From the IMG/VR virus record IMGVR_UViG_3300008807_000528, positions 1-8,000 of that record: DNA of 8,000 nucleotides. The stretch is one strand, 5' to 3'. Below are positions 1 to 8,000 of the stretch, in pieces. The position numbers and the translations under genes were made by a program. Below the pieces are notes generated by a model. It was not told the origin of the DNA, made no database searches, and worked only from the letters and a program-made list of their open reading frames with translations. Position 1 is the stretch's first letter. Each line of letters starts with the position of its first letter. The DNA comes from a virus.

Positions 1-99
1 GTAACTGGGATCGATGGCCGCGAACATCTGGACCTGCAGGGGCAAGTTCGTGATGACCTTGCGGCCTTTTTTGAGCGCATCGAGCACGTGATACACGAC
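1..99. repeat. Terminal redundancy, copy 1 (identical to 7902-8000)
   Basis: Direct base-by-base comparison shows 99/99 identity at an offset of 7,901 nt. Confidence 0.97.
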
Positions 100-150
100 C
101 GCTTCATAACTCTTGCCAGAGCCGGGGATTCCTTCCAGTCCGTTGATCAT
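1..150 (-). CDS. Zot/pI-like assembly ATPase, N-terminal 50 codons (partial; this is the wrap-around continuation of 6675-8000)
   Basis: ATG at 150-148 overlaps the upstream TGA (149-147) as ATGA. The translation is MINGLEGIPGSGKSYEAVVYHVLDALKKGRKVITN..., with Walker A GIPGSGKS. It is in frame with the ORF that runs off the window at 8000. Confidence 0.85.
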   Translation of the reverse strand, partial: MINGLEGIPGSGKSYEAVVYHVLDALKKGRKVITNLPLQVQMFAAIDPSY

Positions 151-485
151 GATCCCAACCTTGTGAAGGGGATGAGCTGAAGCACAAGCCGGATACCGAT
201 GGCGGTCACGATGATCACAGACGCTTCACCGACGCCGAGCAGGCCAAGCACGTTGATCAACTCTGCAGGCAAGGTGCCCCAGGTGTTGGCGTAGGCGTTG
301 ATGCCGCTCAGATCGATGGCAGAGATTGCAGCAACGGCAATGTCCATGACCTGTTCGAAGGGCCAGCAGAAGGCATCGCGGATGAAGTCCCATGCGGCTT
401 GGAAAACGGCCACCATGAGTTGGCCGAACCACTGGGCCAGGGCGACGAACTTGCCGAGGATGGCGCTGATGAAATCACCGAGCAT
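147..485 (-). CDS. pVI-like hydrophobic minor virion/membrane protein (112 aa)
   Basis: The ORF sits between the pIII-like and pI-like genes, as gene VI does in Ff phages. It is very hydrophobic, with several putative TM segments. One nt separates it from the upstream stop, and its stop overlaps the Zot start as ATGA. Confidence 0.6.
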   Translation of the reverse strand: MLGDFISAILGKFVALAQWFGQLMVAVFQAAWDFIRDAFCWPFEQVMDIAVAAISAIDLSGINAYANTWGTLPAELINVLGLLGVGEASVIIVTAIGIRLVLQLIPFTRLGS

Positions 486-486
486 G

Positions 487-1929
487 TCAGCCCCCGAAAA
501 TCATGCGGCGCGCGGCCATGAGCGCGGTAATGATCAGGATGGCCTTTGCAACGTCCCACACCCAGCATGGCGGGGCGATTTCGTGCGTGCCAAGGTCTGC
601 CCAGGCGGGGCCTAGCGACAGGTCAAGCGTCCACGATGGACAAGTGCCGGAGGTCAGGTGCGTTGGCATCATCTGGCCGAGCGACGTCACCATGCTTGTC
701 TGCGCAATAGCGGCGGTTTTGGTCTGCCAAATGCCTACAAGCCCATCCGGATACTTGCGCGTATATAGCTCCGGAATGGGGGGCATGCTGGGGTCGGTGA
801 TGGTGCCCACGGGCTGGCACATGGCAGCATTTGGGTTATGGGCGCACACATCGGGCGTGGAAGGGGTTGCAGTGCCAGGAATGGGCGTGCTGGGGTTCGT
901 TGGCGTGGCCGGGTTGCCGGTGGTCACGGATGTACTGGTGATCGTGACGCCGTAGGGGTTGGCGGCATCATTTGTGGGGGTGATGGTCCACGTAGGTTGT
1001 GTGTACTGCTGGGGCGACGTGTTGGGGACTGGCACCGCCTCGCCAGTCACGGTAAGCGGACGGCTTGGCAGCGTTGGCGCGGGGTTGCTCACACCGATTG
1101 GCAAGTCCTGGGAGCCGGTCTGATCTGGCGGATTGATCGCCGGCACTGGATCAACAGGTATGGGCTTGCCCATCTGCTCAAGCAGCTTTGGATTGACCGG
1201 GATGGAAGCGAGTTGCTGAGCGAGTTGCTCCCACTGGTCAGCAGTGGGCTTGCTAGGTGGCGTACCAGCAAGCGGAATGGCACCATTAGCATCGAGGCAC
1301 CAGCCGGTGACCAAGCTGCCAATTGAGTTGTGCAAGGAGTAGTAGGTGCGGTTGTTATTGCAGCTACTGGCATTTGGAGTGGCGCGGGCGGTGCACCCGT
1401 TGGTACCGCAGGCACCAGGGAGCCAGTCGTTGTACATGGCCTTTGCCTGCGCAACCGTTTCGCCTGTGGAGAGCTTTGTAGCGTTCTCGTCAAAGCCATT
1501 TCCAGCGATGGCCTTGCGCTCAATGGTGTCCGTTGCAGGGTTGTATTCAAAGTCGGTGGCTTTGCCCTGCGCGTGGGCAGCATCGAGCCACTCTTTTGCA
1601 TAGTAGCCAGCGGTACCGAGAGCGAGGCCGCCGAGCACCAACGGCGCAATCGTGGCAGTGGCAGTGGCAGCGACTGCAGCGCCTGCAGCAACGCGCCATC
1701 CAACATTGATAGCGACAGCGCCGCCAAACTCGGCAATGTACACAGACGCAGTGCCGAGAACGTAGCCAGCGCGGGCTATGCCGGCAGCCACGCGAACACC
1801 ATTGACTGTCTGCACGGCCTGACCTGCAGCAGGGGTGAGAACAGCAGCGGTGGCGTACGCATAGTTGATGGACAGCAGGCCCAGTCCAAGGGCTGCAAGC
1901 GCGTTGCGCGCGATGGGTGCGACTCGCAT
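487..1929 (-). CDS. pIII-like adsorption / minor coat protein (480 aa from ATG 1929)
   Basis: It is the largest structural ORF and follows the coat gene. It has a signal-peptide-like N-terminus (MRVAPIARNALAALGLGLLSINYAYA), a long Pro/Thr-rich linker, Cys pairs, and a C-terminal membrane anchor (WDVAKAILIITALMAARRMIFGG). I prefer ATG 1929 because it overlaps the upstream small-ORF stop as TAATG. The 503-aa ORF-track start at 1998 lies inside that small ORF. Confidence 0.7.
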   Translation of the reverse strand: MRVAPIARNALAALGLGLLSINYAYATAAVLTPAAGQAVQTVNGVRVAAGIARAGYVLGTASVYIAEFGGAVAINVGWRVAAGAAVAATATATIAPLVLGGLALGTAGYYAKEWLDAAHAQGKATDFEYNPATDTIERKAIAGNGFDENATKLSTGETVAQAKAMYNDWLPGACGTNGCTARATPNASSCNNNRTYYSLHNSIGSLVTGWCLDANGAIPLAGTPPSKPTADQWEQLAQQLASIPVNPKLLEQMGKPIPVDPVPAINPPDQTGSQDLPIGVSNPAPTLPSRPLTVTGEAVPVPNTSPQQYTQPTWTITPTNDAANPYGVTITSTSVTTGNPATPTNPSTPIPGTATPSTPDVCAHNPNAAMCQPVGTITDPSMPPIPELYTRKYPDGLVGIWQTKTAAIAQTSMVTSLGQMMPTHLTSGTCPSWTLDLSLGPAWADLGTHEIAPPCWVWDVAKAILIITALMAARRMIFGG

Positions 1930-2027
1930 TAAATCCCCCTGAGTCCGAACAGAAATGAGACGGCGCCCAGGCCGCCAAGGAGGGCAACAATTGCCCAAAC
2001 GAGAGCGAGCTGAGCGCCGATGGCCAT
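1929..2027 (-). CDS. 32-aa hydrophobic peptide, possible pVII/pIX-like minor coat protein
   Basis: Hand translation gives MAIGAQLALVWAIVALLGGLGAVSFLFGLRGI. It starts 9 nt after the coat gene stop, and its TAA overlaps the pIII-like ATG. It consists of a single TM-like segment. It is too short for the ORF track. Confidence 0.45.
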   Translation of the reverse strand: MAIGAQLALVWAIVALLGGLGAVSFLFGLRGI

Positions 2028-2036
2028 GGCTGCGCC

Positions 2037-2270
2037 TTAGATCTTGCGGATCACGCGCTTGCCCAGGTCAGGACCCTTGAACACCAGGGCAATGCCGACG
2101 ATTGCCAGGGCGATGACGCCCAGGGCTGCAGAGATGCCGGTGATGTCGATGCTGTCCAGAACGTCCAGCAGGGGGTTGTCGCCGGCTGCAGCGTGGGCCG
2201 ATGCGGCCAGCATGCCGGTAGCGGCCACCAGGGCCAGATTGCGGGTCTTGTTGAATGCGGTCTTGAACAT
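2037..2270 (-). CDS. Major coat protein (pVIII-like, 77-aa precursor)
   Basis: A signal peptide ends in AHA (MFKTAFNKTRNLALVAATGMLAASAHA). The mature N-terminus is acidic (AAGDNPLLDVLDSID), followed by a hydrophobic helix and a basic C-terminus (KGPDLGKRVIRKI). A good RBS, AAGGAAAGAACC, precedes the ATG. Confidence 0.8.
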   Translation of the reverse strand: MFKTAFNKTRNLALVAATGMLAASAHAAAGDNPLLDVLDSIDITGISAALGVIALAIVGIALVFKGPDLGKRVIRKI

Positions 2271-2348
2271 GGTTCTTTCCTTTGAAGTTAAGGTTTCGGT
2301 GGCGAGGAATCGACACCGCGAAGCCCTTGCAGGCTTGACGCTGGCGAC

Positions 2349-2672
2349 TCAGATTTTTTTAACGATGCCCTTTGCGATGCCCGCAGCCCAACCGGCGAAG
2401 TACGCGCCGAAGACGAGCGCGGCGCCCATGCTTCCAACGAGAACGATGCTTTCGGGGGTGATGCCGAGTTGCTCAAGATCGAGCGTGAACTCAGGGGGCG
2501 TGTTGACCTCCTCGACGGTCATGAGGAGGTGCGTGCCAACGGGACAGGCGTACTGGTCGCCGGTCTTCATGGCTTCGCCAGTAACCCAAGGAAGCATGTA
2601 AGCCCCAGTAGGGTGGACAGCCAGCCCCGGGCCGCCAGGGGTTGAGAACGAAAGGACAATGCAGGTAGCCAT
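2349..2672 (-). CDS. 107-aa hypothetical protein with a C-terminal TM helix and a coat-like basic tail
   Basis: The ORF starts 3 nt after the upstream stop. Its C-terminus, IVLVGSMGAALVFGAYFAGWAAGIAKGIVKKI, resembles the coat protein's TM segment plus basic tail. Function is unknown. Confidence 0.6.
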   Translation of the reverse strand: MATCIVLSFSTPGGPGLAVHPTGAYMLPWVTGEAMKTGDQYACPVGTHLLMTVEEVNTPPEFTLDLEQLGITPESIVLVGSMGAALVFGAYFAGWAAGIAKGIVKKI

Positions 2673-2675
2673 TAC

Positions 2676-2807
2676 TCAGCCCTGCCAATCGTCAACGGGT
2701 GAGCGTTCGCCGCACTCTGGACACTCGGGGTGTGAGCTATCGTCCAGCTCATCGCAAGGCACAGAAGCGCCACAAACAGGGCAAGTGTTTTCGGGTTCAT
2801 CGCTCAT
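2676..2807 (-). CDS. 43-aa zinc-ribbon-like protein (CPxC...CPxC)
   Basis: Hand translation gives MSDEPENTCPVCGASVPCDELDDSSHPECPECGERSPVDDWQG. It exactly fills the gap between flanking genes: the ATG is 3 nt after the upstream TGA and the stop is 3 nt before the next ATG. It is not in the ORF track because of its length. Confidence 0.5.
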   Translation of the reverse strand: MSDEPENTCPVCGASVPCDELDDSSHPECPECGERSPVDDWQG

Positions 2808-2810
2808 GGC

Positions 2811-3005
2811 TCAGTGCAGTTCATCGAGGTTGACCACCAGAGGCCGGTGGAATGGTTCGGTGTGATCTTCGATCAGCTGGGCGCAGCTTTCGAGGTCTTC
2901 GACCACACCGGCTTCGCGTAGCAACATGACCCACTCCGGTTGCCCATCCTCAAAGGACGGGGCCAGGAACTGGCCTGTTGTGCCGGACTGGATCACGAAG
3001 CGCAT
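2811..3005 (-). CDS. 64-aa hypothetical acidic protein
   Basis: ATG at 3005-3003 overlaps the upstream TGA by 1 nt (TGATG). There are no hydrophobic segments and no family that I recognise. Confidence 0.55.
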   Translation of the reverse strand: MRFVIQSGTTGQFLAPSFEDGQPEWVMLLREAGVVEDLESCAQLIEDHTEPFHRPLVVNLDELH

Positions 3006-3328
3006 CACGCGGCCTTACGTTCGGGGGCAGCGGGCTTGATCGCCAGCAGGGTCACCTTGCTGGTGTTGTCGGCACCGGCCACGATGTCGAATTCGCAATC
3101 GCAGACGACGCCCGTGACGGGCCAAGACGCCTTGAGGTGCGCCCACTTGTCGAACTCGGCAGAGGTGCCGCACTTGAAGGGGCGGGTGACGACGCCGATG
3201 CTCTGGCCGTTGCTGGACTCGCCCAGGTCCACCGACAGGTGGAACGTGGTGGAGTCGTAGCCACGGCCTTCCATTTCGCCTTTGCTGGACTTGATACCGT
3301 GCAGCACGGCCTTGTTTTGAAATCGCAT
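3005..3328 (-). CDS. Putative ssDNA-binding protein (gene V / RstB position), 107 aa
   Basis: It lies immediately downstream of rep, has a typical size, is soluble, and is preceded by the RBS AAGGAAACACACC. The call rests on position and size only. Confidence 0.55.
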   Translation of the reverse strand: MRFQNKAVLHGIKSSKGEMEGRGYDSTTFHLSVDLGESSNGQSIGVVTRPFKCGTSAEFDKWAHLKASWPVTGVVCDCEFDIVAGADNTSKVTLLAIKPAAPERKAA

Positions 3329-3349
3329 GGTGTGTTTCCTTTTGCGGCC

Positions 3350-4570
3350 TTAGATGGGCTGGAGTCCGACACGGCCATAGCCGGAGCCCGTTGAACGTTT
3401 GAAGGCGCCTTGGTACGCGCGCTGGATTTCGTTGGTGGTGAACTTCTGCAAGCGGCCCGGGGCCTTCTGGTTGCTCACCAGTTCGATGAACTCATCGGCA
3501 CCGAGGAACTGGAAGGCGAGGGCGAGAGAAGGGGCGGCGGTATCGCGAAGCCACTGCACGTTTCGCTTGACTTCGGCGAGGATGGTTTCGACGGAGAGGC
3601 GTGGCTTTGTGGGCACAGGTTCGGGCACAAAAGAGCCTTCCGCCTCGCGAAGGATGGAGGCATGCCAGTCGCTGGCACCGGCAAAGAAATCGGCAGGGCG
3701 GCGGAGCATGTCGGCACCGAGGACGCGCAGCTTGTTGCCGTAACGAAGCTCAGCGCGGAGCCATTGGCTTTCATCCTTCGGGCCGAACAGCTGGATGCCT
3801 TTTTCGTACACGTTGGTTTGCTTGCCGGCTTCCTTCGATCCGAAGTAGAAGGACCGGCCCTTGCCGCCCCGAGCGTTGCACCAGTCACCGACCTGATTAC
3901 AGCTTGGGCGGTTGCTGTGGTGGTCCATCAGCCCGGCCTTGTAGTCCTCGACAACGCGCTCCATTCCGCCTCGCATGCCGTCGAAGAAATCGAGCGCCAG
4001 ATCCACGCGGGTAAGCTTGGCATCGGTGCGCTCGACGATGGCGGCAAGGCGGTCGTTAAAGCCGTGGTGTGCGAAGGTGCACGCGGTGCCGTAGAGGTTG
4101 CAGTGAATGGTGTTGGCCTGCGCCTGTTGGCGTGGGCTTTCACCGCTGGAAAGGAAGCCCACCCAACCGCATTCCACATCGTTGCGCACGATGGACCAGC
4201 GGAAGCGATAGAAGTCATGGCCCTTGCGCAGTTCGGGATAGACGCTGAAATCGGGGCCGAGAGCTGCGCATGCCTGTTCGGCGAGGGTCTTGGCTTGGGC
4301 CGAGGCTGAGAACTCGCCATCGGGCATGTCCCGGAGCAGCTTGGCGAGACGGGCATAGCGGTCCAGGTGCATGGCTTCATCGGACCACCGGGCACCATCG
4401 TGCAAGGGGAACAGATCATCGACCGTTGGCACTGGCGCGTTGCGCAGTGCGACGGAGAAGCGAACCCAGTCGATATGCACCAGGGTGTTGGACTTAAGGC
4501 GTTCGGCCTTGAGGCGCAATTTCACCTCGCTGCCATCGAGCACCAAGTCCGATTGCTTTGCACGGGTCAT
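3350..4570 (-). CDS. Rolling-circle replication initiator, Rep_trans-type (RstA / pT181 RepC-like), 406 aa
   Basis: Motifs read by eye are LTRVDLALDFFDG, SFYFGSKEAGKQTNVYEKG and WLRAELRYGNK. They match the R.D.a.D / Y.Gs....r.YeK / R.E.r pattern I associate with replication initiation factor (Rep_trans) proteins of filamentous phages and RCR plasmids. The start overlaps the upstream stop as ATGA. Confidence 0.85.
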   Translation of the reverse strand: MTRAKQSDLVLDGSEVKLRLKAERLKSNTLVHIDWVRFSVALRNAPVPTVDDLFPLHDGARWSDEAMHLDRYARLAKLLRDMPDGEFSASAQAKTLAEQACAALGPDFSVYPELRKGHDFYRFRWSIVRNDVECGWVGFLSSGESPRQQAQANTIHCNLYGTACTFAHHGFNDRLAAIVERTDAKLTRVDLALDFFDGMRGGMERVVEDYKAGLMDHHSNRPSCNQVGDWCNARGGKGRSFYFGSKEAGKQTNVYEKGIQLFGPKDESQWLRAELRYGNKLRVLGADMLRRPADFFAGASDWHASILREAEGSFVPEPVPTKPRLSVETILAEVKRNVQWLRDTAAPSLALAFQFLGADEFIELVSNQKAPGRLQKFTTNEIQRAYQGAFKRSTGSGYGRVGLQPI

Positions 4571-5400
4571 GCTTGCTCCAAGGACAGGGTCTCCCCGTGA
4601 TTACCATCGGGGAGCATCGACAGCCGCGCTTCGCGCCCGGCCACTTCCCCGCGAGGCGGGGCCCCTTCTGCCGGGCGCTGCGCTTCCAGTGCCCATTGCT
4701 TGAACGCTGCACGCTTTGAGGCCGCGCGTTTGGGCGCAGCCAGGTCGGTGTAACTGCGGTCCTGGCCAGCTGTAACAGCGAGCCGGCGCACTTGGCACTT
4801 GGCGGCCAGGGCAACGAGGAAGCGAGCGAAGGCCGGCGGCGTGGCCTCGCGTTCGGCAGGGGACAGCTTCATGGTGCGGCCCGCAGCTCGGTGTAACTGG
4901 ACTGGCAGTTCGCCGAGGTCTTCGCGGCTGCAGCCGACGATGTAGAGGTATGTAGGCTTGGGTGCAGGATGGCCCCACCAGCCCTGATCGACCAGCAGGG
5001 TCCAGCCGCCGAAGGCATCGACCTTGCCGGGGTGTGGCAGGTCGGCGGCATGCCACAGGGTGCTGCCCCATGGGTGTTCCAGCACACCGCCAACGCGGCG
5101 GATCTGTTCGACAGCGAACAGGGCCAGGGCCTTTTCGTCGGGGCGTGGTTTTGCGAAGTGGCGCAGGCGGCCCCAGCCACGGCAGGGCGGATGGCACACG
5201 ACTGGATTGCTGCCGGTGTAGCCGCGTGCATCGCGCTTGGCGTCCCACACGTCATCCACCAGGTCGAAGTAACAGGAATCGGAGCGGGCGAAGAGGACGG
5301 ACACCGCAGTTCGCTGTAACAGCGGACCAGGGCGCTGAGGCCATGTGAGCCATGCGCCGGACTGGCCTTCGATTGCTGGGGGTGTGACGCTGGAGAGCAT
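4567..5400 (-). CDS. 277-aa protein of unknown function; first gene of the replication operon, with a PPC-containing motif series
   Basis: It is a long ORF in the operon orientation, and its stop is coupled to the rep ATG as ATGA. Motifs are VLFARSDS, VVCHPPCRGWGRL, VLEHPWGS and DQGWWGHPAPKPTYLYIVG. No strong RBS precedes ATG 5400, so the exact start is uncertain. Confidence 0.7.
   Translation of the reverse strand: MLSSVTPPAIEGQSGAWLTWPQRPGPLLQRTAVSVLFARSDSCYFDLVDDVWDAKRDARGYTGSNPVVCHPPCRGWGRLRHFAKPRPDEKALALFAVEQIRRVGGVLEHPWGSTLWHAADLPHPGKVDAFGGWTLLVDQGWWGHPAPKPTYLYIVGCSREDLGELPVQLHRAAGRTMKLSPAEREATPPAFARFLVALAAKCQVRRLAVTAGQDRSYTDLAAPKRAASKRAAFKQWALEAQRPAEGAPPRGEVAGREARLSMLPDGNHGETLSLEQA
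4748..4778 (+). repeat. Bipartite site GTGTAACTG-N13-CTGTAACAG (copy A, inside the 277-aa CDS)
   Basis: GTGTAACTG is at 4748-4756 and CTGTAACAG at 4770-4778. The same two 9-mers with the same 13-nt spacing recur at 6537-6567. Confidence 0.85.
4891..4899 (+). repeat. GTGTAACTG motif copy
   Basis: Exact 9-mer in the same orientation as the other copies. Confidence 0.8.
5314..5322 (+). repeat. CTGTAACAG motif copy (within GCTGTAACAGC); a partial copy AGTAACAG lies at 5268-5275
   Basis: Exact 9-mer. The 11-nt odd palindrome GCTGT-A-ACAGC also occurs at 4769-4779 and 6558-6568. Confidence 0.8.
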
Positions 5401-5517
5401 GCGGTGTACAGTCCGGTTACGTAGCCAAAACTTGTACGTAGTGACTTCTTACTACGTTGGGCCGCATAGTAGTGGAAATTCACTACGTCCTGAAACCGCT
5501 CGAAACAGGAGCTTTCG
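5401..5517. promoter_or_regulatory. Divergent control region with repeated ACGTAGTG / CACTACGT operator-like half-sites
   Basis: This is a 117-nt gap between the divergently transcribed 277-aa gene and the repressor-like gene. One inverted repeat is ACGTAGT-N8-ACTACGT (5436-5457) and another is GTAGTG-N6-CACTAC (5469-5486). An extra TACGTAG sits at 5418-5424. The RBS AGGAG (5507-5511) precedes ATG 5518. A possible plus-strand promoter is GTGACT (5441-5446) with CATAGT (5465-5470) at 18-nt spacing. Confidence 0.6.
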
Positions 5518-5952
5518 ATGAACCACCTTGAAGAACTGAACGCCCTTATTGACAAGGCCGCAGAAAAGGCAGGCAGCGATTACAAGCTCGCTGCAATGCT
5601 TGGAATGCAGCGTCAAAAGATCAGCAACATGCGGCACGGTCGCATGACGGCAACGCCAGAGGATCAGGCGCTATTCGCCTCTGTTGCTGGATTGAATGCT
5701 ATTGAAGTGCTAGCACGCGCAATGGTGCAGAAGCACGAAGGAACCCCAAAAGGCGACAGGTTGATGCGTGCCCTGGGAAAGGGTTTGCTAGCGACTGGCG
5801 CGGCAGTCGCTACCGCTGGAGCAAACGCAGCGGCGATCTTTTCATCGATCCACCCGGCTAAAACCGTTGTTGACTTGATACGATGTATAAAATTGTTAAA
5901 TCCGTTTGGACTTGTCAATAGTGAAATAATATCGAAAAAGGCCCCTGTCTAG
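5518..5952 (+). CDS. HTH (Cro/CI-type) repressor-like regulator, 144 aa
   Basis: It is the only plus-strand gene and is divergent from the replication operon, as rstR is in CTX-type phages. An HTH-like segment reads DYKLAAMLGMQRQKISNMRHGR. It has a good RBS. The C-terminal part contains an Ala/Gly-rich hydrophobic stretch, and the last ~25 codons fall in an AT-rich island. Confidence 0.75.
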   Translation: MNHLEELNALIDKAAEKAGSDYKLAAMLGMQRQKISNMRHGRMTATPEDQALFASVAGLNAIEVLARAMVQKHEGTPKGDRLMRALGKGLLATGAAVATAGANAAAIFSSIHPAKTVVDLIRCIKLLNPFGLVNSEIISKKAPV

Positions 5953-5963
5953 GGGCCTTTTTT
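5935..5963. terminator. Bidirectional rho-independent terminator T1 (AGGCCCCT-GTCT-AGGGGCCT flanked by A5 and T6)
   Basis: An 8-bp GC-rich stem (5939-5946 with 5951-5958) and a 4-nt loop are followed by a T-run on the plus strand and preceded by an A-run. It lies between the convergent repressor gene (its stop, 5950-5952, is inside the hairpin) and the 80-aa ORF. Confidence 0.75.
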
Positions 5964-5977
5964 CATACAGAGCCGTT

Positions 5978-6220
5978 CTACCTAGCGCGATTGCTTCTGT
6001 CCTGTTGCGGCTGAACAGATAGAGATGGCGGTGAGGAAGGGCGCTGCTGTTGAATCGCCTGAGCTGCAGCGTTGCTACTGGCAACCTCTAGACGGTGCGA
6101 AATGAGGGCCTCGTAACCAAAAAACAGCATGGTGCCGCCGAGGAAAATACCCAACGCCAGCTTCACCACATCAACGAGAAAAAACCAGGTGCTATCGGGC
6201 CGGTAGATGATTCGGTGCAT
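5978..6220 (-). CDS. 80-aa single-pass membrane protein, candidate accessory (moron) gene
   Basis: ATG at 6220 is preceded by a strong RBS, AGGAGGAAGGGGC. The sequence MHRIIYRPDSTWFFLVDVVKLALGIFLGGTMLFFGYEALI... has one TM segment and a Gln/Ser/Pro-rich tail. The 117-aa ORF-track version would start inside or upstream of terminator T2, so I reject it. Confidence 0.55.
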   Translation of the reverse strand: MHRIIYRPDSTWFFLVDVVKLALGIFLGGTMLFFGYEALISHRLEVASSNAAAQAIQQQRPSSPPSLSVQPQQDRSNRAR

Positions 6221-6260
6221 GCCCCTTCCTCCTTTTGGCAAGCACGATAGCAGCAAAAAC

Positions 6261-6285
6261 AAAGGCCCCGAGCAGGGGCCTTTTT
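6261..6285 (-). terminator. Rho-independent terminator T2 ending the long minus-strand operon (also has a T-run on the plus strand)
   Basis: AAAGGCCCC (6261-6269) pairs with GGGGCCTTT (6275-6283) around the loop GAGCA. On the minus strand the hairpin is followed by TTTGTTTTTG. The stem sequence is nearly identical to that of T1. Confidence 0.65.
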
Positions 6286-6339
6286 CATTGGGGTGAGCAT
6301 CGAGGGCATAACACCGGCCCGGATAGAACAACAGTTGAC

Positions 6340-6356
6340 ATGGGGCGTCGCCCCAT
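6340..6356. other. 17-nt odd palindrome ATGGGGCG-T-CGCCCCAT, a potential ssDNA hairpin in the noncoding region
   Basis: The palindrome is perfect around the central T. It sits in the 125-nt noncoding stretch 6286-6410, next to a C4/C4/C4 tract (6351-6366). Confidence 0.5.
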
Positions 6357-6410
6357 ACCCCACCCCACCACTACGACACAAGGTCTCCGTTCCAGGGGAC
6401 CCCTTGCCGA

Positions 6411-6509
6411 TCAGTCAAAAGGGTTGCGGACCTTGCGCCAAAGGTAGCCGCCGAACGCACCAAGAACCACCGCGACAGCGCAGCTTGCCAACATTTCAAA
6501 CAGGTCCAT
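6411..6509 (-). CDS. 32-aa hydrophobic peptide (hypothetical)
   Basis: Hand translation gives MDLFEMLASCAVAVVLGAFGGYLWRKVRNPFD. The RBS GGAG lies 5 nt upstream of the ATG. It has one TM-like segment and is the last ORF before terminator T2. Confidence 0.4.
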   Translation of the reverse strand: MDLFEMLASCAVAVVLGAFGGYLWRKVRNPFD

Positions 6510-6536
6510 GAGCGCTCCAGTGCAACAGCCAGATGA

Positions 6537-6594
6537 GTGTAACTGAGCACCGCGGCCGCTGTAACAGCAGACGTGGCGCAGCTGGGTGTAACTG
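6537..6594 (+). repeat. Intergenic triple-motif cluster: GTGTAACTG-N13-CTGTAACAG-N18-GTGTAACTG
   Basis: The motifs lie at 6537-6545, 6559-6567 and 6586-6594, inside the 88-nt gap between two micro-ORFs. This is copy B of the bipartite site seen at 4748-4778. Confidence 0.85.
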
Positions 6595-6597
6595 AAC

Positions 6598-6678
6598 TCA
6601 CAGACCGATGAACCGAAGAACCTTGCGCACGATGGAGCGCACCACGGTGTTGACGATGGTGCGCCAAAGGTACTTCAT
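6598..6678 (-). CDS. 26-aa basic amphipathic peptide (hypothetical), translationally coupled to zot
   Basis: ATG 6678-6676 overlaps the Zot TGA (6677-6675) as ATGA. The peptide is MKYLWRTIVNTVVRSIVRKVLRFIGL. Evidence beyond the coupling is weak. Confidence 0.3.
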   Translation of the reverse strand: MKYLWRTIVNTVVRSIVRKVLRFIGL

Positions 6679-8000
6679 TGCAGGTTGCCCCGGCCACCGG
6701 CATAGGAGGGGTTTTTGAGGCGCAGCGCAGCAGTGAGGTCTGCAGGCGATATCTGGCCCTCTTGCGGCCGCTGAAACTCGGGCATGGGAACGGTGCGCGC
6801 TGGTGCTGCAGCGGCGCCATGGCCCTGGCGATCGCGGCCCACTTCGACCACGATAGGCTTGTCTGCGGACCACTGGGCCATGGCAGGGGCATCACAGGTG
6901 ATGGCGCGCGGCTTGCCTTCCCATCGGAGGGTGCCGGCGCAGTCGGTGAGGGGTTGCCACACGTAGCCCATCTTTTGGAGGTCGCGGCTGTCCATCGTGC
7001 TCACGCGCTGGTTACTGTTGCTGATGGTGAACGTGTACACGTCCTGGCCCCGAAAGGTAATGCGGCCAGTCAGGTGCATGGTCTTGCCGGCGTAGGGCTC
7101 AGGCGTAGCGTTTGGATCGGGCTCAGAGGGCCTTTGCACAGGTGAGGGTGCCGTGCCATTGGCCAACTGGTTTGCAGGGATTGGAGAGGCGACAGGCGGG
7201 GTTGCTGGGGCCGTTGCCTTGCTCACCTTTGCCGATGGTGCAGGCTTGGGCTTTTTAGCCTTGTCGGAGGGCCAGAGGTACCAGACGGCTGCAGCGGCAG
7301 TGAGGCCCCACCAGATCCAGGTGAAACGCCGAAATTTGACGATAAAGGGGGTAACGTCCGATGCGGCCGATTCGGCCACGCTGTTGCCTTGCGTGTGGCT
7401 TTTGTAGAGCTGGAAATACTGGGGTTTGTAGGGGCGCTCCTCTTCGCTGATGACGGCCCCTCGGTAGCCCGCATGGACCTTGCGGATGTAGCAGCCCTTT
7501 TTGCCGAGGATGTCCGCTTTTCGGCAGCGGATCAGCATGGCGATGAGGCGGGCGATGGGCTGGTTCATGTCCCGGAAACTCTGGGTCATGAGCAGCACAT
7601 CGGCGTTGAAGTGGCGGTGCAGCTTGAACCACTCCACCACCTGTTTATCGGTGCCCTGCTGAGGGATGGGCACGTGGCATTCGTCGATGACGAAGAGAGG
7701 TCCCTGACCGGTGTAAGGGTGCTTCCAGTCGCTGAGGTAGTCCCACACATGGCCGAACACCGATACGCCTTCGCCGGGCTGTTCTTTGCGGCCATCTTCA
7801 AACAGGGTGACAGCTTGACCGTTGCCCTTGTCGTCGACGGCTGCGGCGTTCCAGACGCCAAGCACTGGGCGAGGCTTCACCAGCACTTCAACCAGGTCGG
7901 TGTAACTGGGATCGATGGCCGCGAACATCTGGACCTGCAGGGGCAAGTTCGTGATGACCTTGCGGCCTTTTTTGAGCGCATCGAGCACGTGATACACGAC
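6675..8000 (-). CDS. Zot/pI-like assembly ATPase (5' end runs off the window; the full gene is 458 aa once 1-150 is joined)
   Basis: It has Walker B-like LFVIDECH and a central TM segment, FTWIWWGLTAAAAVWYLW, followed by a Pro/Ala-rich periplasmic domain. The Walker A motif lies in the wrap-around part (1-150). The ORF-track start at 7997 is an internal GTG (Val19). Confidence 0.9.
   Translation of the reverse strand, partial: VVYHVLDALKKGRKVITNLPLQVQMFAAIDPSYTDLVEVLVKPRPVLGVWNAAAVDDKGNGQAVTLFEDGRKEQPGEGVSVFGHVWDYLSDWKHPYTGQGPLFVIDECHVPIPQQGTDKQVVEWFKLHRHFNADVLLMTQSFRDMNQPIARLIAMLIRCRKADILGKKGCYIRKVHAGYRGAVISEEERPYKPQYFQLYKSHTQGNSVAESAASDVTPFIVKFRRFTWIWWGLTAAAAVWYLWPSDKAKKPKPAPSAKVSKATAPATPPVASPIPANQLANGTAPSPVQRPSEPDPNATPEPYAGKTMHLTGRITFRGQDVYTFTISNSNQRVSTMDSRDLQKMGYVWQPLTDCAGTLRWEGKPRAITCDAPAMAQWSADKPIVVEVGRDRQGHGAAAAPARTVPMPEFQRPQEGQISPADLTAALRLKNPSYAGGRGNLQ
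7900..7908 (+). repeat. GTGTAACTG motif copy (within the 17-mer CCAGGTCGGTGTAACTG, 7892-7908); its last 7 nt recur at 1-7
   Basis: Exact 9-mer. The 17-mer is identical to 4740-4756. Confidence 0.8.
7902..8000. repeat. Terminal redundancy, copy 2 (identical to 1-99)
   Basis: Direct base-by-base comparison shows 99/99 identity at an offset of 7,901 nt. Confidence 0.97.

Follow-up and report, generated by a model that had tools for sequence, protein, structure and literature searches.

The 88-nucleotide (nt) intergenic gap at positions 6510 to 6597 of the IMG/VR virus record IMGVR_UViG_3300008807_000528 holds a cluster of direct repeats with a GTTACA core which, judging from sequence comparison, is a displaced paralogue of an array lying in the 3' linker of an unannotated gene, here called ORF277 (ORF, open reading frame). 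The repeats are, by the same comparison, inherited with ORF277 and not with the replication initiator (Rep) of the phage. We tentatively favor the explanation that the cluster is an extra binding-site array for a factor that recognizes the ORF277-linked repeats, in other words, a displaced iteron array and not a nick site. The stretch analyzed, referred to as the window, comprises positions 1 to 8,000 of the record (8,000 nt). It contains a circular genome of 7,901 nt (positions 1 to 99 are identical to 7902 to 8000, 99 nt) belonging to a small filamentous phage, an inovirus, that carries its main gene set on the minus strand. Features described below are on that strand unless stated otherwise. 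The genes most relevant here are a Rep_trans rolling-circle initiator gene, rep (3350 to 4570; PF02486, E = 1.9e-23), ORF277 (4567 to 5400), which lies upstream of rep together with a repressor gene, and zot, encoding a pI-like assembly ATPase (6675 to 8000), which crosses the end of the window in the circular genome.

A sequence-only reading of the gap had described it as a candidate origin or regulatory node, and its account of the repeats themselves proved accurate. Three copies are present at the spacing it gave (GTGTAACTG at 6537 to 6545, N13, CTGTAACAG at 6559 to 6567, N18, and GTGTAACTG at 6586 to 6594). The 88-nt gap is the sole noncoding site of the motif, the other copies falling within ORF277 (4748, 4770, 4891, and 5314) and zot (7900), and the bipartite copy at 4748 to 4778 is real and has the same N13 spacing as the intergenic cluster. 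STGTAACWG occurs eight times in the window, always on the plus strand, compared with 0.10 +/- 0.33 in shuffled sequences, none of 200 of which reached eight. The 10-nt form CWGTTACASC, allowing up to one mismatch, gave 11 matches versus 1.25 expected. The motif family is a real DNA-level element, and the intergenic cluster and 4748 to 4778 are two arrays of one thing; segments 4737 to 4779 and 6526 to 6568 are 77% identical over 43 nt, so the similarity exceeds the 9-mers.

With the genes on the minus strand, the packaged coding strand shows the motif as CAGTTACAC or CTGTTACAG, and there it forms the core of a direct-repeat unit of 19 to 27 nt with the consensus cGCW-GTTACA-SCsrsCnGG. There are two types of unit. 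The A unit is 22 nt long (CTGTTACAGC...) and contains an 11-bp near-palindrome, GCTGTTACAGC, while the B unit is about 27 nt long (CAGTTACACCgAGCTGCGCCACGTCyG). The order is B-A-B in the gap (6594 to 6521) and A-B in the 3' part of ORF277 (4778 to 4732). As in an iteron array, the three intergenic units at 6521 to 6594 share one orientation and a conserved core, and each aligns with the corresponding region of L002, the closest relative, which is 76 to 79% identical genome-wide and ~76% identical in the cluster part. Unit 1 is a 27-nt B unit, CAGTTACACCCAGCTGCGCCACGTCTG (6568 to 6594; L002 7071 to 7097), unit 2 a 22-nt A unit, CTGTTACAGCGGCCGCGGTGCT, with the core palindrome (6546 to 6567; L002 7098 to 7119), and unit 3 a B unit with a degenerated flank, CAGTTACACTCATCTGGCTGTTGCA (6521 to 6545; L002 7120 to 7144). 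Among 59 distinct units from 16 loci, C was found at position -2 in 92%, at +7 in 83%, and at +11 in 98%; GTWACA is invariant in this set, the units of which had been selected on GTWACA.

The remaining copies in the window are coding. The gene-internal A-B array (4732 to 4778), in the variable 3' linker of ORF277, is the paralogue of the intergenic one. The ORF277 core carries at its 5' edge an iteron copy (5313 to 5322) that encodes LLQR and marks the point where DNA similarity to the relative L004 begins. Two iteron-like copies lie within the core, one at 4890 to 4899 encoding the conserved PVQLHRAAG, in which the leucine codon TTA is kept, and the other, CTGTTACTT(CGACCTGG), at 5266 to 5274, encoding the invariant DSCYFDL. 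The copy in zot (7899 to 7908) encodes PSYTDL, and the PSYTDLV codons at 7899 to 7915, CCCAGTTACACCGACCTGG, give a 17-nt match to the B-unit consensus. The CAGTTACAC core occurs at this position in only 3 of 34 other Zot homologues (L002, L046, and L051), the other proteins having sequences of the DPAYRDLI type. L046 and L051 carry no arrays and lack ORF277, and nearly the same codons are present in them, which makes a functional site in zot unlikely; the copy is probably a lineage-specific coding coincidence.

The ORF277 linker consists of one to five GTTACA units of 19 to 27 nt that are read as LQ, VT, or SY/CY/CN depending on the frame, and reading in three frames occurs even within single homologues. 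The KRAAFxxWA helix downstream stays in frame despite the change in unit number, and the variation is synonymous. The leucine codon TTA, which is assumed to be rare at about 60% G+C, is retained throughout the iteron-bearing ORF277 genes (~60% G+C). One DNA motif read in three frames, together with the retention of TTA, points to selection of the units at the level of DNA and not of protein. A repeat maintained at the protein level was likewise rejected on the ground that the motif is read in three frames.

Within the close subfamily, almost every ORF277 locus has an array at its 3' end, whether a Rep_trans, a REP_ORF2-G2P, a resolvase, or a terminator follows. The hosts of the ORF277-bearing relatives are Comamonadaceae, and ORF277 precedes rep in many inoviruses of this family. 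Across the Rep comparison set, which was made up of 80 IMG/VR loci with a related Rep, the arrays are absent from about 75, including L001, whose Rep is 89% identical. These Rep_trans relatives lack ORF277, and L002 is the single case of an array without it. The same units also precede the unrelated REP_ORF2-G2P Reps of L207 and L211. Thus, as with an iteron array, the repeats are co-inherited with a candidate cognate gene, ORF277. At 805 to 1182, L002 has a single ORF of 125 amino acids (aa) in which the N-terminal extension (GQSGAWLTWP), an AKRAA remnant, and the C-terminal leader (…LSMLPDGNHGETL…) are joined and the core is absent. L002 derives by deletion from an ORF277-bearing form and does not break the link between arrays and ORF277.

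This distribution bears directly on the function that the sequence-only reading had suggested, namely that the cluster is a Rep_trans origin or a Rep-binding enhancer and that 4748 to 4778 is a second initiation and termination site, the two sites together yielding circles of 1.8 and 6.1 kb. Direct repeats adjoining an origin are a classical arrangement, the gene-internal array lies about 120 to 190 nt 5' of a conserved rep-proximal hairpin, and a site downstream of the morphogenesis genes parallels the Ff intergenic region. However, repeats that are missing from L001 and most other Rep_trans relatives, and that accompany an unrelated family of Rep proteins, do not behave as the target of this Rep, and the cluster has no hairpin or other structure beyond that of shuffled sequences (z = +0.21 for the packaged strand, against 200 shuffles, and +0.18 for the other). 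An element that does track Rep_trans, CCCCGWTGGTAATCACGGGG, lies elsewhere. Neither the origin nor the prediction of two circles, to which the same evidence applies, is supported, and we consider the Rep-origin proposal highly improbable. The parts of the sequence-only reading that stand are the DNA-level element, the pairing of the arrays, and the presence of cis-acting signals nearby; a regulatory node is possible.

The replication origin most likely lies elsewhere than the cluster. The best candidate for the Rep_trans plus-strand origin, as a putative nick or recognition site, is a hairpin directly 5' of rep, CTCCCCG-ATGGTAATCA-CGGGGAG (4591 to 4614), on the basis of its conservation and position. 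Of 81 Rep_trans loci, 71 have this element, of the form CCCCG(A/T)TGGTAATCACGGGGA(G/T)AAC and with an invariant loop, within about 130 nt 5' of rep; the others are contigs cut at rep and one sequence variant. The element is absent from G2P-type phages. In the window it falls inside the translated 3' end of ORF277. Two accessory hairpins, a GCGAAGC minihairpin (4626 to 4636) and CCCCGC-GAG-GCGGGG (4647 to 4661), precede it, and both recur 5' of rep in many Rep_trans loci. A Rep_trans protein paired with an invariant-loop hairpin 5' of its gene is reminiscent of Rep_trans double-strand origins, as in pT181, with its RepC-type initiator, and in CTXphi, with RstA. The GTTACA cluster, in contrast, differs from the element at 4591 to 4614 in sequence, structure, and phylogenetic distribution.

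Independence from the Rep family, together with the identical orientation of every copy on the packaged strand, would also be explained if the cluster were a single-strand (minus-strand) origin or some other signal that is recognized on the packaged strand alone, and the arrays do lie near other cis-acting elements. Single-strand origins, in rolling-circle plasmids and Ff phages, rely on extensive secondary structure, however, and the cluster folds no better than shuffled sequences. The palindromic 22-nt A units are better suited to double-stranded binding, and most arrays are within a coding linker and vary in unit number. Taken together, these observations make a single-strand signal very unlikely.

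The origin of the cluster is best seen in L002, which has an A-B-A-B array at the same place, starting from the stop codon of micro-ORF 1, a small reading frame next to zot. When the L002 array is read through that stop codon, it gives LQLARTAVTPSCATSAVTAAGDGSYTDLAAP, a typical ORF277 linker, and its final 25 nt are identical to window positions 4756 to 4732, comprising a B unit and flank from the ORF277 linker. These two features indicate that the intergenic array is a displaced copy of the linker array. They are equally what would be expected of a recombination relic, the main rival to a binding-site array, in which a fragment of the ORF277 3' linker was copied into the intergenic region in an ancestor of the window phage and L002, by illegitimate recombination or module shuffling, and is now functionless and decaying. 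The diverged flank of the third unit in the window, the many ORF277-positive phages that have no intergenic array, the retention of the array by L002 despite deletion of its ORF277 core, and the variable position of the array relative to neighboring elements are all consistent with a relic. On the other side, the window and L002 agree at every base of the three aligned GTTACA cores, the 12 differences among 66 aligned bases all falling in the spacers, and the key flank positions (-2 C and +11 C) survive as well. At a divergence of about 18 to 24%, we estimate the chance of such retention under neutrality at about 1 to 3%. Moreover, consensus B units occur in this intergenic region in an independent lineage as well, and noncoding DNA in an 8-kb single-stranded DNA (ssDNA) phage is usually under strong pressure toward loss. 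A relic therefore appears to us possible but on the doubtful side.

The independent lineage is that of L206, L210, and L211, in which two consensus B units occur 25 nt after a conserved intergenic hairpin. With the window and L002, this makes two lineages with second arrays near that hairpin. Of 9 ORF277-positive loci, 4 have at least two B units no farther than 300 nt from the hairpin, versus 1 of 28 ORF277-negative loci, although the positive cases are not all independent.

The hairpin in question, ATGGGGC-GAC-GCCCCAT, has its stem at 6340 to 6356 within GGGGTATGGGGC-GAC-GCCCCATGTCAAC, about 180 nt from the cluster along the packaged strand. It lies in the region 6286 to 6410 that the sequence-only reading had named as an alternative site. 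Thirty-six distinct versions were recovered, located downstream of zot in about half of the loci examined, and stem variants look compensatory by eye (ATGGGGT/ACCCCAT, ATGGGGG/CCCCCAT, and ATCGGGGGC/GCCCCTGAT). Hairpins of this type are found with both Rep families (for example, L001 7213, L207 7160, and L211 9536), which argues against a Rep-specific site and would suit a signal linked to the assembly module, either for packaging or of another kind. In integrative Xanthomonas filamentous phages, short G+C-rich hairpins are reported to be the packaging signals and to be interchangeable between phages with different Rep proteins (bioRxiv 10.1101/2023.12.30.573655). The hairpin at 6340 to 6356 is likewise short, G+C rich, dyad symmetric, and conserved across Rep types, but its sequence departs from the Xanthomonas consensus GGX(A/-)CCG(C/T)G (bioRxiv 10.1101/2023.12.30.573655). 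This comparison concerns the neighboring putative packaging hairpin and not the GTTACA cluster, which neither folds into a stable packaged-strand hairpin nor is conserved in relatives, whereas the element at 6340 to 6356 has both features. A literature search with the hairpin sequences gave no relevant match, and in the Ralstonia phage RSS1 none of the three elements (origin-like hairpin, packaging-like hairpin, and iterons) was found.

The two arrays also invite an explanation as module boundaries. The repeats at 6521 to 6594 and at 4732 to 4778, plus 5313 to 5322, bracket a 1.8-kb lysogeny or accessory module containing micro-ORF 2, the hairpin, orf80, the repressor gene, and ORF277, and could serve as crossover sites for exchange or excision of the module by homologous recombination or by a dedicated enzyme. 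In both two-array lineages the arrays bracket the regulatory module and ORF277, DNA homology between the window and L004 starts at the 5' iteron (5322 to 5324), the insertion point of the ORF277 core relative to the leader ORF differs among phages, and unit number varies as unequal crossover predicts. The window phage encodes no recombinase, however, and a methyltransferase fold, which ORF277 resembles as described below, is not known to recombine DNA. The end points of the ORF277 core deletion in L002 are not at iterons, and the collections searched contained no variant in which the module was excised or missing. Crossover sites therefore seem to us an unlikely explanation for the cluster.

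If the cluster is instead a binding-site array, ORF277 would be the likeliest source of the factor. The protein matches only phrog_12600, a family without an assigned function, and has more than 2,000 unannotated homologues. A protein alignment divides it into a conserved core (aa 33 to 200), the hypervariable linker, and the conserved KRAAFxxWA helix, and it has in addition a fused leader that overlaps the origin region. Its layout suggests that a methyltransferase-like core was inserted into a small leader ORF; in L204 and L215, the core is located upstream of the leader ORF and not within it. An AlphaFold2 model (predicted local distance difference test score [pLDDT], 79) was compared with known structures using Foldseek, and among the 50 PDB matches listed, 48 were C5-cytosine DNA methyltransferases and 2 were other DNA methyltransferases. 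The scores were weak (E ≥ 2e-3, the best being 2e-3, and template modeling [TM] score about 0.3), with probabilities of 0.95 to 0.98. On the strength of the model, ORF277 resembles a C5-cytosine-methyltransferase-like accessory protein. The closest folds are those of M.HaeIII, M.HhaI, and DNMT3. By inspection only, a PC motif and an E motif occur in the right order, the invariant H70-P-P-C73 (HPPCRGW; HPPCRxW) resembling motif IV and E108-H-P (GGVLEHP, with LEHP as the E motif) resembling motif VI. A C-terminal TPPxFAxFL helix is similar to motif X, again by inspection. Unlike C5-methyltransferases, the protein has only about 170 to 200 residues and no recognizable target-recognition domain.

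Homologues of the ORF277 core were also observed in other phages. They are located directly 5' of Rep in the inovirus Xanthomonas phage fSU1 (L216, 1242 to 1946) and in Tortoise microvirus 37 (L217, 2903 to 3400), and directly 5' of the large terminase gene in the Mu-like Pseudomonas phage Meltemi (L218, 2492 to 3088). A homologue in Rhodobacter phage Ebor carries the annotation putative DNA methylase.

In the binding-site explanation, the units would be double-stranded binding or modification sites of one sequence-specific factor, most likely the ORF277 protein, since no other phage gene co-occurs with the units. Bound at the gene-internal array, the factor would sit about 120 to 190 nt 5' of the candidate plus-strand origin hairpin; bound at the intergenic array, it would be about 180 nt away from the hairpin that resembles a packaging signal. 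In replication or packaging, the cluster would accordingly have an auxiliary role, either regulatory or as a mark, with no nicking there. A more specific and considerably less probable version has ORF277 as a miniature C5-methyltransferase-like protein that recognizes the pseudo-palindromic GCWGTWACWGC. By binding or modifying the two arrays, it would couple the plus-strand origin to the packaging region, or else it would pair the arrays and thereby favor the loss or exchange of the 1.8-kb lysogeny module. In both forms of this version, ORF277 would be a self-contained cassette of an enzyme plus its embedded target array that moves among inoviruses with unrelated Rep proteins.

Several points weigh against a binding-site array. 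The binding protein is proposed solely from co-occurrence, and the gene-internal arrays are physically within ORF277, so that their co-inheritance with it is trivial. Spacing is irregular (22 and 27 nt in the cluster and 19, 22, 27, 31, and 36 nt elsewhere), which does not suggest strict helical phasing. The methyltransferase assignment is one of resemblance in fold and motifs: no match to the ORF277 sequence was found in Pfam (including PF00145) or, even by profile, in PDB, NCBIfam gave no named family, and the glycines of motif I are missing (LFARSDS versus FxGxG), differences that set the protein apart from C5-methyltransferases. Core homologues in the Xanthomonas inovirus, the microvirus, and the Mu-like Pseudomonas phages (casadabanviruses) have neither linker nor iterons, and L039, with a distant homologue, has no iterons either, which indicates that the enzyme core does not need iterons and that the arrays are an add-on of the Comamonadaceae subfamily. 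Finally, second-site arrays are confined to two lineages and missing in the ORF277-positive L004, L049, L207, L208, and L212, and neither their distance from the hairpin nor the side on which they lie is constant (5' by 180 or 60 nt, or 3' by 25 nt).

The closest parallels to a binding-site array are the iteron-like arrays of phages f1 and P1. The f1 origin contains gpII-binding repeats, and P1 pac contains hexanucleotide arrays whose use depends on Dam methylation. As in those systems, the cluster consists of at least three direct repeats of about 20 bp with an invariant core, and the units are grouped close to a signal for replication or packaging and associated with a single phage gene of a DNA-modifying fold. 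Unlike in f1 and P1, most of the units here are in a translated hypervariable linker, in three frames, they follow an accessory gene and not the initiator, their spacing is irregular, and binding or methylation at the units is a prediction only. The cluster is thus known in kind, as a direct-repeat binding-site array, and unusual in its embedding in a coding linker and its link to a methyltransferase-like cassette.

Other explanations of the motif were considered and rejected. A host-wide motif, such as an uptake sequence or a Chi-like or KOPS-like (FtsK-orienting polar sequence) element, was discarded since GTTACA outside ORF277 is near the level estimated from base composition in a 20-kb Rhodoferax locus (L202). 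A repressor operator was discarded because the divergent promoter region has inverted repeats of its own and because repressor homologues are widespread without GTTACA arrays. A XerCD dif-like site was rejected by inspection, the direct 9- to 11-nt cores having no dif-like arms (dif sites have two 11-nt arms around a fixed 6-nt center) and the loops of the nearby hairpin varying in length, and a serine-recombinase site was rejected because the window contains no recombinase. Small serine recombinases do appear to be carried by L002, L203, L206, and L211, with Pfam confirmation for L211 only.

Searches for further examples of the motif yielded few. The exact bipartite pattern had no match in viral contigs. 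A looser GTTACAGC-N14-GTTACA pattern gave mostly chance matches in unrelated phages, along with the additional ORF277 loci L127/L136, L138, and L166, and a metagenome scan with the B unit gave one genuine match, in the ORF277 linker of L215, and one chance match. Tight tandem arrays of the TGTTACA type with a period of about 10 to 11 nt were observed in unrelated contigs (L083, L088, L101, L103, L130, and others); they entered through the search pattern only and show no sign of homology to the ORF277-linked system. Among deposited phages, megablast and blastn searches with the window, the cluster region, and the origin region revealed no close relative.

The gap is flanked by two micro-ORFs. 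Micro-ORF 1 (6598 to 6678), the start of which overlaps the stop codon of zot, encodes 26 aa, MKYLWRTIVNTVVRSIVRKVLRFIGL, and is kept in L002 (6969 to 7049) and L020. Micro-ORF 2 (6411 to 6509) encodes a hydrophobic peptide of 32 aa, with GGAG 6 nt 5' of its ATG, and is absent from L002. The two share a YLWR(K/T) motif, with 79% identity over 24 nt between 6423 to 6446 and 6649 to 6672, and their size is reminiscent of the Ff proteins pVII and pIX. Downstream of rep are genes for an ssDNA-binding-like protein (3328 to 3005), a coat protein (2270 to 2037), a pIII-like protein (1998 to 487), and a pVI-like protein (485 to 147). The repressor gene, upstream of rep, is divergent (5518 to 5952, plus strand), and the inverted repeats ACGTAGTGA.../...TCACTACGT (ACGTAGTGACTTCTTACTAC / GTAGTGGAAATTCACTACGT) at 5436 to 5488, between it and ORF277, are likely operators of the divergent promoters, bound by the repressor and unrelated to GTTACA. 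Two similar G+C-rich hairpins flanked by A/T runs (AAAAAGGCCCC...GGGGCCTTTTT), at 5934 to 5963 and 6257 to 6286, look like bidirectional terminators and bracket a small membrane-protein gene whose product starts with MHRIIYRPDS (about 6221 to 5978). A tRNA gene (…GGTTCGAATCCCTCC…) adjoins several related prophages (L026 59, L038 46, L048 232, and L200 1845). A scan of 5300 to 6800 for sigma-70 promoters found none, and a scan against Rfam gave no match near threshold.

For the annotation of Comamonadaceae inoviruses, the analysis tells apart three cis elements that are easily confused: a Rep_trans-linked origin-like hairpin 5' of rep, a Rep-independent packaging-like hairpin 3' of zot, and the GTTACA iterons, which are part of neither. 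The iteron family is unusual in that it is kept as a DNA motif within a translated linker, whichever of the three frames is read, and in being tied to an unannotated protein family with a methyltransferase-like fold and over 2,000 members, the core of which precedes a DNA-processing gene, either Rep in inoviruses and a microvirus or the large terminase in Mu-like phages. If ORF277 neither binds nor modifies the arrays, the cluster would be a mere recombination scar. If it does, ORF277 would be a phage accessory enzyme that carries its own target array, in a system both compact and amenable to experiment.

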